This document shows positions 53,909-59,239 of a DNA stretch of 60,367 nucleotides, in pieces (position 1 is the first letter of the stretch; each line of letters begins with the position of its first letter). The notes under the pieces were generated by a model, which saw nothing but the letters and a program-made list of their open reading frames with translations, had not been told where the DNA came from and made no database searches. A program made the translations under genes and the position numbers. Source of the stretch: a virus (Duplodnaviria; Caudoviricetes); the IMG/VR virus record IMGVR_UViG_3300032770_000024, positions 1-60,367 of that record; one strand, given 5' to 3'.

Positions 53909-54958
53909 ATGCGTAAATTTTTATACCTTCTAACCTTTCTCTTTGGTGCTTGCGCTCAAGCAGCAACTGTCCAGGGACCCTTGCAGGCGCAAAACGCTTT
54001 GGCCGAGATAGCAGCCAACGGTTCTACCGCGCAGGCTAGTGCCCGGACAAACATTGGAGCTGCTTCAACTGCATCTCCCACATTTACTGGCACGGTTACA
54101 ATTCCAACCGGCTCCGTACTTAATACTCCGGCATCTATTAACCTAACCAACGGAACGGCTCTCCCGTACACGGCGTTGCCTTCTTTGAGTGCTAATCAGC
54201 TGCTAGGCTCTCTTACGGCAACCACTCCAAGCGGCCAGTCTGTGCCTTCGTGCAGCGCTGCAGGAGATGCGTTATCCTGGACTTCCGGCACAGGTTTTGG
54301 TTGCTTTACGGGATATGCGCCACTGGCCAATCCGGTATTCACCGGAAGTTTTAATGCTGCGACAGGTGCCACATTCGGAACAGTAATAAACAGCGGTACC
54401 ACAACCTTTCTAACAGATGAAAATGTATCTTCTGCTCCTGGCACTGCAGCGGTTGTTTTAGCTTTGACCGGGGGCGCGGACTTTGCCGAGTTAATCAATC
54501 TCGACGGCACAACCCCCACAGCTTTTCTTGAAAGCGGCAGCGGCGATACTGGCGGTTTGGTTATTCAGACCAGTGCGGGACCGATTGTACTTGCCAGCAA
54601 CACGGTTTTCACTGGAACAACCTTCTCGGTTGCACATACGCTTTTCGCTTCTACTGCTCCAACGATCGCTTCCGGTTTTGGCACCAGCCCTTCGATCGCG
54701 GCAAATAATGGAACAGCGGCTTTCGCCGTTACCGTCGGGACAAGCCCGGGTTCTAGCGGCGTTTTGACTTTGCCGGCAGCTGCAGATGGTTGGGCCTGTG
54801 ATGCAACTGATATAACTACACAAAGCGCCAGCGTCTTTCTTACAAAAGAGACCACCACCACTACAACTACTGTCACGCTTACGCAGTACAACGATGCGGC
54901 AGTGGCAACGCCATGGGTTGCGGGCGATAAGCTCTTAGTTAAATGCTCTGGCTATTAA
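53909..54958 (+). CDS. Signal-peptide-bearing fibre-like protein
   Basis: [18 protein letters not shown] leader; [23 protein letters not shown] fibre motifs. Confidence 0.7.
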
Positions 54959-54969
54959 GGAGAAGAAAA

Positions 54970-55107
54970 ATGCCATTGAAAAAGGGTAAGTCGAAAAAGG
55001 CCGTGAGCGGGAATATTTCCAAGCTCTCACACGAAGGGTATCCGCAAAAGCAGGCAGTTGCTATCGCGCTCTCAACGGCACGGAAGAGCAAGAAGAAAGG
55101 GAAGTAG
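54970..55107 (+). CDS. 45-aa basic protein ([13 protein letters not shown]...[11 protein letters not shown]6496-like)
   Basis: AAGGAG RBS; recognisable small phage family motif. Confidence 0.75.
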
Positions 55108-55155
55108 CTCTTCCCTTTTATTCGAGCTAATCTCCCTACAAATTTGGAGGCTTTT

Positions 55156-55764
55156 ATGAAGCTCAGACTCCTTTCCCTCTTGCTGGTCCTGCTGCCAGGC
55201 CTCGCCCTGGCGCAGACTACCAACTTCCCGACTCCCCCGCTGAACGGCTTCCAGCAGTATGTTCCGGGGCAGATGTGTATGAGCCTGAACGGCTCGAACT
55301 ACGCGGTGCCCTGCAGTAGCAGCAATCCTCTGCCGGTCACGGTGACTGGTGGGGGAGGCAGTACGGTAAATCAGGGTAATGCGGGGAGCGCGGCGCAAGC
55401 CTGGTTCTCGCAGCAGGTGCTGGGCGGCACCGTAGTTAGCAACACCAACCCGATGCCGGTGACTGTCATTTCTGGTAGCGGAACGCAGGCTATTGCCTAT
55501 GCTGCGCCGGGCTCGACGGTTTCTGTTACCACAGCTTCTACCTCCGTACTCGGCGCTGCCGCTTACACCCACACTCTGACGCTGTGCACCGAACCGGCGG
55601 ACGCAGGAAATGTGTGGCTCAATCTTTCAGGAGGCGCCGCTGTAGTGAATACGGGCTTCTATGTGCCCTCCGCCGGAGGCTGTGTTACCATAGCCCCTCC
55701 AACCGCAGCCATCACCGGAATAAGCGATAGCGGCACTTCGCACCTGACTGTTCAGGGAGGTTAA
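55156..55764 (+). CDS. Signal-peptide-bearing appendage protein
   Basis: GGAGG RBS; MKLRLLSLLLVLLPGLALA leader; NP(L/M)PVTV twice. Confidence 0.7.
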   Translation: MKLRLLSLLLVLLPGLALAQTTNFPTPPLNGFQQYVPGQMCMSLNGSNYAVPCSSSNPLPVTVTGGGGSTVNQGNAGSAAQAWFSQQVLGGTVVSNTNPMPVTVISGSGTQAIAYAAPGSTVSVTTASTSVLGAAAYTHTLTLCTEPADAGNVWLNLSGGAAVVNTGFYVPSAGGCVTIAPPTAAITGISDSGTSHLTVQGG

Positions 55765-56959: not shown

Positions 56960-56999
56960 ATAGGCGGCACGCCTTCAATCGCACCGCAAGGAAATCAGA

Positions 57000-57353
57000 A
57001 TGGCAAATTATCCAAGTCCAACCTTCAACAATCTAACCTTATTGGGTTCATTTTCCTACACGCCACAGGGGGCCGGTTTGGGCACAGATCACAGTGAAAA
57101 TCCACCCGCGCCATTGACCGTTCTGGCTAGCGGCACAGTCTCTCATCCCGGCGCTCTTTATGTGATGAACCAGAGCGCTGCCACTATTCAGATTTGGCTT
57201 CAAGGCGCAACTGCACCTATCTTGCTCGATCCCGGCGCTGGTGCAGACCGCCAAGGCGGTGATTGGTCTGCTGTTATAAACATGCCGTGGTTCGTTGGAA
57301 CATTTACGATCAACGGCGCTTCTGGCTCCCAGTTTTACGCCAACAGCAATTGA
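57000..57353 (+). CDS. Small virion/tail-associated protein, allele B
   Basis: 116/117 aa identical to 116-469. Confidence 0.85.
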   Translation: MANYPSPTFNNLTLLGSFSYTPQGAGLGTDHSENPPAPLTVLASGTVSHPGALYVMNQSAATIQIWLQGATAPILLDPGAGADRQGGDWSAVINMPWFVGTFTINGASGSQFYANSN

Positions 57354-57358
57354 GGAAC

Positions 57359-59239
57359 ATGATGATTAGGAAATTCCTCCGCACCCTGGCTGCTGCTTCT
57401 ATCGCGGCGATAGGCTTTTCTGCGCCGTCATATGCGGGCTACCCGCCGACGCCATATCTTCCAGCGATGCAGGATGTGGGTGCGCCGACCAGCTGCCCGT
57501 TTATCATTATCAATTCCGGTCAGAGCAATGCCGAAGGGTTTGACTATTCTGGCGGCTCATACACCCATACTTTGGGCACGAATATCCTCACAACAAACGC
57601 CAACATCAACAGCACACCTACCTCAATTATCACCGCAGCGTACGGCACATATCCGTGGAACCAAACGACCAGCGCCAACGGCGGGTCAACTTCGACGCCA
57701 AATCTCGTCTATGTCAACCAGGCTCTCTCGTTTGCGACATACCTCCGTAACAGCGGTATGATCCCGGCGAGCCGTCCAATTCTCGTCGTGCCAAATTGGT
57801 ACGGCAATCAGTCGATTTCGGATTGGGTTGATATGACGCCGATCGACATGTGGACGCCGCTGACCGCCTCCATGACGCTGGTGGAGAATACCTATCCAGG
57901 CTGTCCGATTAATGATGTGATTTGGGATCAAGGAGAGTTTGACAGCACAGCCTCAGCGGGAAGTAATTATAATTCGTTTTCTTTGTATCAAGGAGCTTTC
58001 ACTCGTCTGATTGCTCAATATCAGGCGCTGCCAGGCTGGTCTACACAAACGCGAATGCAGGTCGTTGAGCTTGCTCCGTTTGCTGATAACCCCGAACAAG
58101 CTCGCAATGATTTCCTGCGCACATTGCAAAACGGCCAAGGCAGTTCCGGTGTCGAAGGCAGTGCGGGCGCATATCCGTTCATCACTTTTGTCTCTGGCTC
58201 AGGGTTGGTCGAAAGCACCCAGAACCCGCAGGAACACTACGACGGCTACAGCCAGCAGACACTTGGGCAGCGCATTTTCCAGGCATGGGCGCAGGGGCGG
58301 GTTTTTGGCTCATATAGCGGCGCGGTAACAAGATACGGCTCGACCTATGCCTTCCCGAACTTCATCACACTGACAAGTGCAGGTGCGGCTCTCTCTCCTG
58401 ACCAAATCCGTACCGGGGCGCTGGTCTCGGTTGGCGGCGGCACTGTGACGCTGCCAAATCCTGCGAGTATGCCGCTGACGTTTCCGCCGATCATCTTATC
58501 TGCTCAATCTGGCACCACGACAACAATTTCGACGGGAGGCACGACGCAGGTTGATGGCCTTGGGATCGCGGCGAGCTTCAACATCTACTCCGGCGATACC
58601 TACGAGGCTGTGATGCAAAACGGAACCACATGGCTTTTCAAAAAGCTGTGGGGGACGGGAGGTGGTGCCGGTGGGCCTGGATTCTCCGCCTACGTTGCAG
58701 GCGGCCTATTGAGTGGTACAGTAAACCTACCATATGCTCAGACGTTAGGTGGCACCTATACGCTCAATGGGGCCACGATGACTATCACTACCGGCAAAGG
58801 GAGTATCTTAACTTTAGCAGATCAAATCGCAGCCTCTACAGTAACCACCTCAACCGGTAGCTTCGAGTTTCCGAACGGTTCAACCTCTAGCAGCTTAACG
58901 CTACAGCCAGGGCAGACGGCCAGCCTTGCATCTGGTTTCGCAACAGCCAGCAATGCGCTTTATACATACGTCACCTCTATCACCCCCCTCACCGCCGTTT
59001 CCGCCAGCATCGGCGGTTCGTCACTGTCGGCGGGCGCTTGCACCAGCGGCGCGGTTACGGTCAACGGCGCCTCGGCTTCCTCGGGCCTGACAGTCAAGGC
59101 CACGCCGAACACCGACCCTGGCGCGGGCTTTACGTGGGGTGCATTTATCAGTTCGGCCAATACGGTGACCGTGCGCGTGTGTGCCATTGCAGCGGGAACA
59201 CCTACCGCGTCCACGTATGATGTGTCGGTTAGTTACTGA
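57359..59239 (+). CDS. Signal-peptide-bearing tailspike-like protein with SGNH/sialate O-acetylesterase domain (allele B, 626 aa)
   Basis: GQSN (block I), WDQGEFD (block III), EHYD..SQ..LG.R. Confidence 0.75.
   Translation: MMIRKFLRTLAAASIAAIGFSAPSYAGYPPTPYLPAMQDVGAPTSCPFIIINSGQSNAEGFDYSGGSYTHTLGTNILTTNANINSTPTSIITAAYGTYPWNQTTSANGGSTSTPNLVYVNQALSFATYLRNSGMIPASRPILVVPNWYGNQSISDWVDMTPIDMWTPLTASMTLVENTYPGCPINDVIWDQGEFDSTASAGSNYNSFSLYQGAFTRLIAQYQALPGWSTQTRMQVVELAPFADNPEQARNDFLRTLQNGQGSSGVEGSAGAYPFITFVSGSGLVESTQNPQEHYDGYSQQTLGQRIFQAWAQGRVFGSYSGAVTRYGSTYAFPNFITLTSAGAALSPDQIRTGALVSVGGGTVTLPNPASMPLTFPPIILSAQSGTTTTISTGGTTQVDGLGIAASFNIYSGDTYEAVMQNGTTWLFKKLWGTGGGAGGPGFSAYVAGGLLSGTVNLPYAQTLGGTYTLNGATMTITTGKGSILTLADQIAASTVTTSTGSFEFPNGSTSSSLTLQPGQTASLASGFATASNALYTYVTSITPLTAVSASIGGSSLSAGACTSGAVTVNGASASSGLTVKATPNTDPGAGFTWGAFISSANTVTVRVCAIAAGTPTASTYDVSVSY

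Follow-up and report, generated by a model that had tools for sequence, protein, structure and literature searches.

Leader-bearing, cysteine-paired fibre and spike proteins of a podovirus-like phage are probably exported to the periplasm

We analysed the fibre block of a tailed soil phage (Duplodnaviria; Caudoviricetes) on a complete IMG/VR virus record (IMGVR_UViG_3300032770_000024), the whole of which, 60,367 bp at 57% G+C, is called the window here. Five genes for fibre- or spike-like proteins in this block, named by their start positions (53909, 55156, 55766, 57359 and 475), begin with leaders that have the features of cleavable Sec type I signal peptides, and the mature chains carry even numbers of cysteines (Cys). 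Across the whole fibre and spike family to which two of them belong, the leader and the putative disulfide pair come and go together, with about three quarters of the members leader-bearing. We infer that these phage-encoded proteins are very probably exported and folded oxidatively in the periplasm, because the leaders evolve as signal peptides do and because both the Cys parity and the Cys pair track the leader.

Textbook tailed-phage morphogenesis is wholly cytoplasmic, and the Sec-exported tailed-phage proteins described so far are, to our knowledge, lysis and exclusion factors. Two outcomes of export would be new for tailed phages if true: virions would receive periplasm-made receptor-binding proteins at lysis, or, alternatively, phages would release oxidatively stabilised, free fibre-like lectins and enzymes. 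We slightly favour free or envelope-associated, glycan-directed proteins, at a probability of roughly 0.45. The question matters for annotation and host-range prediction, as such genes are labelled 'tail fibre' by position; their leaders would also make such proteins fail in cytoplasmic expression.

Signal peptides in the fibre block

Leaders were detected with a home-made, strict von Heijne-type rule (a basic N-region, an uninterrupted hydrophobic core of 7–15 residues, and small residues at −3/−1 within about 30 residues of the start). All five leaders pass this strict Sec type I rule, each showing 1–3 basic residues and 10–15 uncharged hydrophobic residues followed by an AxA-type site, with predicted cleavage at AQA↓A (53909), ALA↓Q (55156), ALA↓Q (55766), SYA↓G (57359) and ASA↓G (475). 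The neighbours 53117 and 57000 have no leader, as the first-pass annotation, made from the window sequence, had also read them. The strict rule flags 9 of the 85 window open reading frames (ORFs) of at least 60 amino acids (aa), namely the five fibre genes, 25299 on the minus strand and three small, probably non-coding ORFs; in 91 viral loci, family members included, it flags 42 of 987 ORFs of at least 100 aa read from their first start. Five leaders within the fibre block are beyond chance.

The start codons that include the leaders are preceded, 6–9 nt upstream, by Shine–Dalgarno-like GGAGG, GAGG or GGTGA (for 55156, GGAGG lies 7 nt upstream of the ATG), and a downstream Met is absent within all five leaders. 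Among close homologues of the 55766 protein, the first 19 residues are 37–53% identical, whereas residues 38–280 are 75–98% identical; in seven close or moderate homologues, 6–10 of the 19 leader positions and 109–239 of the 243 positions of the latter segment are identical. In every homologue the leader still opens with a basic stretch, runs through a hydrophobic core and ends in a small-x-small site. This turnover of sequence under a constant leader character therefore points to a signal peptide and not to a structural helix. A lipobox (L-[AS]-[GA]-C), read from the translations, occurs in none of the five leaders; 53909 is the sole leader with a Cys near the site (FGAC-AQA), where the −3/−2 residues are unfit, and its homologue P0206 has GGAC-AQT at the same place.

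Cysteine parity and coupling of the Cys pair to the leader

Each of the five mature proteins has four or six Cys (Table 1), in agreement, gene for gene, with the even counts reported in the first-pass annotation; the leaderless window ORFs of at least 100 aa divide into 28 with even and 21 with odd counts. The fibre motifs SPTFTG and TTRLATDAFV and a C-terminal domain common to two of the genes, which that annotation had also pointed out, are present in the translations, the domain being shared by the 53909 and 55766 proteins at 49% identity over 103 aa. Its family comprises at least 1974 representative clusters (E ≤ 1e-3), in which the domain always stands at the extreme C-terminus of proteins of 102–1536 aa, and it has no entry in Pfam-A or NCBIfam.

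Among the best 150 of the 1974 family members, 141 start with Met; the strict rule recognises a leader in 96 of these, and a looser rule does so in 107. The mature Cys count is even in 96 of the 107 leader-bearing proteins (binomial p 4e-18) and in 24 of the 34 leaderless proteins. Both domain Cys are present in 137 of 157 sequences, the first alone in 11, the second alone in 1 and neither in 8.

We then considered phages only, using an IMG/VR scan of 79 loci with 75 domain ORFs complete at the 5' end, from which a 5-mer overlap filter removed near-duplicates to leave 48 non-redundant ORFs. The canonical Cys pair is present in 26 of the 32 leader-bearing ORFs and missing from 6, whereas among the 16 ORFs without a leader it is present in 1 and missing from 15 (Fisher p 6.6e-7, a value that overstates independence because the sequences are related). 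The leaderless phage members fall in several distinct clades. In this set leader and Cys pair go together almost one-to-one (26/6 vs 1/15).

The exceptions also follow a pattern. In five of the six leader-bearing exceptions each Cys has moved two residues, one forwards (52 to 54) and the other backwards (100 to 98), and the two therefore stay opposite each other in antiparallel register; such shifted-pair homologues occur in loci L043, L046, L050, L076 and L103, with the pattern GW.x.C ... L.C.A. L045 is the sole member that has the pair but no leader, and its N-terminus, which the rule missed, looks membrane-targeting. We read these patterns as a disulfide-bonded tip where the protein would be exported, and as a pair replaced by Ala or Val where the tip would fold in the cytoplasm.

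Fold and predicted trimer of the C-terminal domain

The C-terminal domain is predicted to be an eight-strand beta-sandwich (predicted local distance difference test, pLDDT, 96). A Foldseek search of the PDB had no hit at E ≤ 1e-3. With VIA-align, the model reached Z 5.0–6.3 to C-terminal sandwiches of glycosidases. Comparable values were obtained for the distal domains of R-pyocin fibres, of the AP22 gp53 fibre and of the Pam1, LKA1 and Dettilon tailspikes; similarity at this middling level may mean no more than a common fold. BFVD contained one true homologue of the domain, from an uncultured phage and with function unassigned, and the ESM Atlas returned unnamed viral clusters alone (0.89–0.90). 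By tblastn, neither the 55766 protein nor its C-terminal domain, the homologue P0037 or spike B (57359) had a match among 50,697 deposited phage records.

Prediction of a homotrimer of the C-terminal domain scored 0.85, compared with 0.00 for the best control. In the calibration, from which this prediction differed in using an alignment of our own and three copies, 20 of 30 solved homo-pairs and 1 of 23 single chains scored as high. Contact agreement between runs was at least 92%, and partner pLDDT at least 89. In the trimer model, residues 48–53 of one copy touch residues 96–103 of another (e.g. 53 with 99, 51 with 97–99, and 99 with 100). On this basis the conserved pair 52/100 (alternatively 54/98) may form a disulfide between subunits and so lock the trimer.

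The AlphaFold2 model of the whole 55766 protein, built from 13 sequences, had a mean pLDDT of 48.6, with residues ~90–250 alone usable. For its middle part (residues 85–273, pLDDT mostly 70–88) the best matches were five phage spike proteins (Z 7.1–7.9), the top one being the N-terminal part of CBA120 TSP4 (Z 7.9). The genes stand between the nozzle and fibre genes and the holin, spike A (475) matches a tail-spike PHROG, and family members in L040 and L048 match PHROGs of tail fibres and spikes. The proteins are fibre- or spike-like in their PHROG families, in their fold matches and in the predicted trimeric tip. We set aside a reading of the C-terminal domain as a sorting signal, like the C-terminal domain of type IX secretion substrates (T9SS-CTD) or PEP-CTERM: the same domain stands at the distal end of leaderless phage fibres, neither a PEP motif nor a membrane helix at the terminus is present, and the hosts lie outside the Bacteroidota.

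Fate of the exported proteins

In the reading that we favour, the leader genes would be transcribed together with the late structural genes, the cleavable type I signal peptide would take each chain through SecYEG, and signal peptidase I would expose the mature N-terminus. The chains would fold and trimerise in the periplasm, where the host Dsb system would close the paired Cys, including the pair of the C-terminal beta-sandwich tip, which may link neighbouring subunits. The proteins would build up there until lysis by holin and endolysin, with release dependent on the holin because the endolysin is soluble and has no leader. Having no canonical N-terminal anchor into the virion, this set of lectin-like fibres plus an esterase or depolymerase spike would remain free or envelope-associated and act on surface glycans, binding or modifying host polysaccharide in the periplasm first and in the surroundings after lysis; destruction or masking of receptors and loosening of the matrix would be likely effects. 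Secreted receptor-masking or surface-modifying proteins had been the second choice of the first-pass annotation, and we rate them at least as likely as virion attachment.

Its first choice was a two-compartment route. In the form considered here, the fibres would become oxidised and trimeric in the periplasm after export and would dock when holin holes connect the two compartments or just after the burst, serving as extra receptor-binding proteins on fibre-less or partly fibred particles. The exported, oxidatively folded half of that proposal gains support here, as all of the export evidence applies equally to it; the virion-attachment half, in its canonical form, has three results against it. 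The first concerns the docking segment: leaderless homologues (P0024, P0026, P0030) have 50–130 extra N-terminal residues where the leader stands here, the mature proteins begin directly with shaft or catalytic sequence, no N-terminal particle-binding segment or recognisable docking domain was found in them, and spike B, with its predicted esterase starting at residue 49, has no room for a particle-binding domain. In the translations, no motif at the mature N-terminus is common to the four paralogues. Furthermore, a 93%-identical copy of the 55766 protein occurs in phages that have no other structural gene in common with the window phage. The missing matches among the deposited phage records and the dilution with which assembly after lysis would have to compete also count against docking. 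On the other side stand several points that weigh against freely released proteins, many of which would suit virion attachment. The leaderless gp117 has the motif [AQ][NS][YF][PA][ST]PT[FY] directly after its Met, and in four leader-bearing homologues the same motif coincides with the predicted start of the mature chain; this placement would suit a docking peptide, which the motif could be, and also supports the predicted cleavage sites. Long shafts, here combined with a predicted trimeric tip, make most sense with one end anchored to a particle or cell. The genes abut in the tail-fibre slot of the late operon with no convincing internal terminator on the plus strand (a promoter and terminator scan gave results near shuffled expectation and no internal unit boundaries in the block), and at ~4.9 kb, or 8.6% of the genome, they are large for accessory proteins. 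The locus resembles a receptor-binding-protein hotspot, with spike alleles swapped at strain level and two of them in one population, and the homologues P0004, P0010, P0012 and P0019 keep the N-terminal half and swap their C-termini, a mosaic typical of receptor-binding proteins. The central domain best matches virion spikes, including the attachment and branching region of CBA120 TSP4; the long repeat-domain nozzle could give extra docking sites, and a soluble endolysin implies a hole-forming holin. Moreover, Cys pairs can oxidise after lysis without export, the leader calls rest on the home-made rule, and the family statistics are phylogenetically non-independent. We regard virion assembly through two compartments as a serious contender, although we would not wager on it. 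A broader form of it is doubtful: tailed phages whose diderm hosts live in soil and fresh water (Acidobacteriota, Burkholderiales) would routinely build part of their adsorption apparatus in the second compartment, with Dsb-made inter-subunit disulfides locking the trimers and loading onto particles assembled in the cytoplasm taking place in the seconds that separate the holin hole from outer-membrane rupture. If true, host Sec and Dsb would be tailed-virion assembly factors, and lysis a maturation step.

Export itself could be denied, by taking the N-terminal segment as an uncleaved structural or tethering helix or as a start-codon artefact, with folding in the cytoplasm and oxidation after release. 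Disulfides in tailed-phage virions without export are known, as far as the available part of one report goes (Protein Sci 2026, PMC13576161); leaderless family members exist, and an internal Met could remove the leader of the 436-aa fibre in L048. The leader-including ATGs of the window genes, however, have their own ribosome-binding sites and no Met follows within the leaders, and the AxA site and basic N-region persist while the sequence around them turns over. The absence of the pair from 15 of the 16 leaderless phage members would be unexpected if cytoplasmic folding and later oxidation sufficed, and we hold this explanation to be improbable. Nearly the same judgement, a shade more sceptical, applies to display on the cell surface, in which exported fibres would be anchored on the host envelope and bind neighbouring cells or block superinfecting phages, never soluble and never part of a virion. 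The available part of a study of Bdellovibrio describes 21 phage-like trimeric surface fibres with Sec leaders (PMC10769870), the mosaic adhesive trimers (MATs), and family members occur outside recognisable phage regions (L024, L025). The MATs, as that source presents them, own a conserved anchor domain of ~130 aa after the leader, whereas none follows the leaders here; a lipobox and an outer-membrane translocator domain are also missing from these proteins, and late-operon expression in a lytic phage leaves little time for a role on the surface. A spanin-like lysis role was set aside because of how large and diverse the proteins are and because they contain fibre and enzyme domains.

Comparison with known systems

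A precedent for an exported receptor-binding protein that later joins a particle is pIII of filamentous phages, which is Sec-exported, disulfide-bonded in the periplasm and then incorporated. It belongs to a non-lytic, membrane-assembling phage, whereas the window phage is tailed and lytic, and we know of no tailed phage that follows a pIII-like route. The T1-, T5- and lambda-like phages have exported receptor-blocking lipoproteins, Cor and Llp, which are encoded beside receptor-binding genes and act on the phage's own receptor; they are small and have a lipobox, unlike the proteins here, which are fibre-like, have 202–676 aa and carry type I sites. Conventional fibres and tailspikes (CBA120 TSP4, AP22 gp53, Pam1, LKA1, Dettilon) resemble our set in genome position, PHROG families, shaft motifs, a distal beta-sandwich, the esterase spike and mosaic evolution. 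They differ by folding in the cytoplasm, without a signal peptide and with an N-terminal particle-binding domain, and the fold matches to them are middling (Z 5–7.9). Our search of the open full-text literature, with subscription-only literature outside it, found no report of fibres or spikes with signal peptides in tailed phages.

Among bacterial proteins, the 21 MAT fibres of Bdellovibrio bacteriovorus come close, according to the available part of their description (PMC10769870): they combine a Sec signal peptide, a long trimeric phage-like fibre and an adhesive tip, in many paralogues with swapped parts. That account places them on the chromosome of a predatory bacterium, with the conserved ~130-aa domain, which is beta-rich, after the leader and variable tips; the five proteins here belong to a phage tail module, have no common segment after the leader and have the tip as their conserved part, a separation that is drawn from the descriptions. 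Pantoea stewartii WceF, in the accessible portion of its report (PMC7949094), is an exported trimeric enzyme of tailspike fold that trims the producer's own exopolysaccharide, and is a precedent for exported glycan enzymes of spike type. As portrayed there, WceF is bacterium-encoded, has a Tat signal and keeps a P22-like head-binding domain, whereas the proteins here are phage-encoded, with Sec-type leaders and Cys pairs and without a head-binding-type domain. The likeness extends to a leader-bearing family member in a contig of an Acidobacteria metagenome-assembled genome (MAG), which lies beside polysaccharide-synthesis genes, a glycosyltransferase and a nucleotide-sugar epimerase (L024:9221-10312). 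The 10 kb captured of that contig contains no phage genes, and L025 and L027 are also without obvious phage neighbours.

The signal-peptide endolysin Lys44 of phage fOg44 and the signal-arrest-release (SAR) endolysins, as far as the available part of the source covers them (PMC6116005), are Sec-exported phage lysis proteins; as is predicted for the proteins here, they are late proteins that take the Sec route before lysis, and they too are encoded beside a holin. They are peptidoglycan hydrolases in that account, whereas the leader-bearing proteins have no lysin domain and the phage has its own soluble endolysin.

Relatives and distribution

Judged by the contigs in which homologues were found, leader-bearing fibres with paired Cys appear to be common in uncultured phages that infect Acidobacteriota and Burkholderiales, and to recur in hundreds of uncultured phages overall. 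In L004 a leaderless 261-aa fibre is followed by three consecutive leader-bearing fibre genes. L030 has three leader-bearing fibre genes, then a small membrane ORF, then an endolysin; the start of the membrane ORF resembles the window holin, and the ORF matched no family. In L022, a lambda-like Undibacterium prophage, the genes for the central fibre J and the endolysin flank a single leader gene (739 aa, 12 Cys). Prophage copies occur in cultured strains, in Undibacterium sp. (L022) and in Caballeronia calidae LMG 29321 (L019).

The phages with the 93%-identical copy of the 55766 protein share just the holin region with the window phage otherwise. By tblastx (E<1e-8), L003:4336-5804 and L004:9965-14220 match window positions 55766-56959 and 2600-3216, the sole common segments, and the 55766-type fibre and the holin seem, on these alignments, to travel together as one module. 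L009 and L017 have a single leaderless fibre after the nozzle, and a nozzle is present in L011 and L016; a leader-bearing gene is absent from the captured DNA of these four loci.

A freshwater phage clade (L060-L062, L072-L107) has leaderless proteins of 156–185 aa in which the tip domain lacks the Cys pair. These small proteins share an N-terminal motif with a neighbouring 859-aa fibre (e.g. L087:7764-10894), which by sequence is the conventional docking-motif arrangement.

Genome unit, host and neighbouring genes

The window overruns its genome unit. Positions 1-498 duplicate 56885-57382 at 96.8% identity, and a second conserved flank matches 2510-2713 to 59156-59359 at 92.6%. L018, a contig in a Terriglobia MAG, is 100% identical to the window over 20,309 bp and continues from window position 56884 directly into position 1, which puts the unit, by these alignments, at ~56,884 bp (~56.9 kb). 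The last 3.5 kb of the window differ from the first version in the spike and in the small genes that follow the holin start; the segment would reflect either strain variants merged during assembly or a true terminal repeat that has diverged. Because of the window repeat and the L018 join, we take 475 and 57359 to be alternative alleles (A and B) of one spike locus, and a genome therefore has four leader-bearing fibre genes; the first-pass annotation, correct in the positions and leaders of the genes, had counted five.

The host is probably a member of the Terriglobia (Acidobacteriota) and diderm, because of the MAG assignment of L018 and several homologues in Terriglobia or Acidobacteriota contigs, which are a hint and not proof. 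By its gene content the phage appears lytic and podovirus-like: it encodes a family-A DNA polymerase, a helicase and a ParB-methylase, together with a major head protein (phrog_9953) and an SU10-type adaptor (PF24175, slightly below cut-off), and no integrase was found among the 51 window ORFs scanned against Pfam.

Table 1 Features of the fibre block and of related window regions (signal-peptide ends and cleavage sites are predicted).
Feature	Position	Strand	Remarks
Spike allele A, 676 aa	475-2505	+	Signal peptide ~475-546, APISASA↓G; tail-spike-type middle; 6 mature Cys
Holin	2637-2870	+	phrog_9284, 6.3e-8; directly downstream of spike locus
Soluble endolysin, Phage_lysozyme	24041-24652	+	No leader; PF00959, 2.8e-22
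Two further leader-bearing genes	25299-25898, 25960-26301	-	Adjoin endolysin, on the opposite strand
Nozzle-like protein, 1143 aa	49676-53107		Many copies of a ~90-aa domain; PHROGs 701, 19630, 460
Leaderless fibre gp263, 263 aa	53117-53908	+	2 Cys; docking-type N-terminal start as in related phages
Leader-bearing fibre-like protein, 349 aa	53909-54958	+	Signal peptide ~53909-53962; SPTFTG shaft motif; C-terminal domain 54647-54955; 4 mature Cys (115, 132, 297, 346)
Small, very basic ORF, 54 aa	54970-55107	+	phrog_2423 (widespread phage family), E 3.3e-19, residues 10-53
Leader-bearing protein, 202 aa	55156-55764	+	Signal peptide ~55156-55212, LPGLALA↓Q; 4 mature Cys
Leader-bearing fibre-like protein, 397 aa	55766-56959	+	Signal peptide ~55766-55822, CGPALA↓Q; C-terminal domain 56648-56956; central domain in common with virion spikes; 6 mature Cys
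Diverged second copy of gp117, spike and lysis locus	56885-60367	+	Repeat comparison, L018 join
Leaderless 117-aa protein gp117	57000-57353	+	Second copy 116-469
Spike allele B, 626 aa	57359-59239	+	Signal peptide ~57359-57436, FSAPSYA↓G; 4 mature Cys

The product of 53117-53908 is likely the core virion fibre. One leaderless fibre of 251–388 aa stands at the same position after the nozzle in L004 and in the major capsid protein relatives L009 and L017; an IMG/VR search with gp263 found no relative. The stop of this gene abuts the start of 53909, and the small basic ORF lies between two leader-bearing fibre genes. The 55156-55764 product matched no Pfam, PHROG or NCBIfam family.

Spike B contains a SASA-type carbohydrate esterase domain (PF03629) over residues 49-310, at 32.8 bits against a gathering cut-off of 24.8, and its translation shows the GQSN serine motif (NSGQSNAEG). 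Its homologue P0217 combines the leader, the esterase and the family C-terminal domain, and phmmer gave no match of spike B among PDB sequences. Spike A matches phrog_4636 (tail spike, 4.3e-14) and phrog_6002 (5.1e-21). Apart from SASA, neither Peptidase_S74 nor any other Pfam family (E ≤ 0.01) was found on the five leader proteins, and NCBIfam gave no match for the 11 proteins searched. Of the two further leader-bearing genes, 25299-25898 has 6 mature Cys and matches phrog_20531, and 25960-26301 has no Cys.

The nozzle is 1143 aa long in the window and 543–710 aa in the capsid relatives. Its ~90-aa domain recurs in the product of 47328-48155, in the central part of the 55766 protein and within a tail-sheath protein of L019. 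At 17117-18568, on the minus strand, a ParB N-terminal domain is fused to an N6/N4 DNA methylase, and DUF7768, DUF6378 and a UDG-superfamily protein are encoded nearby.

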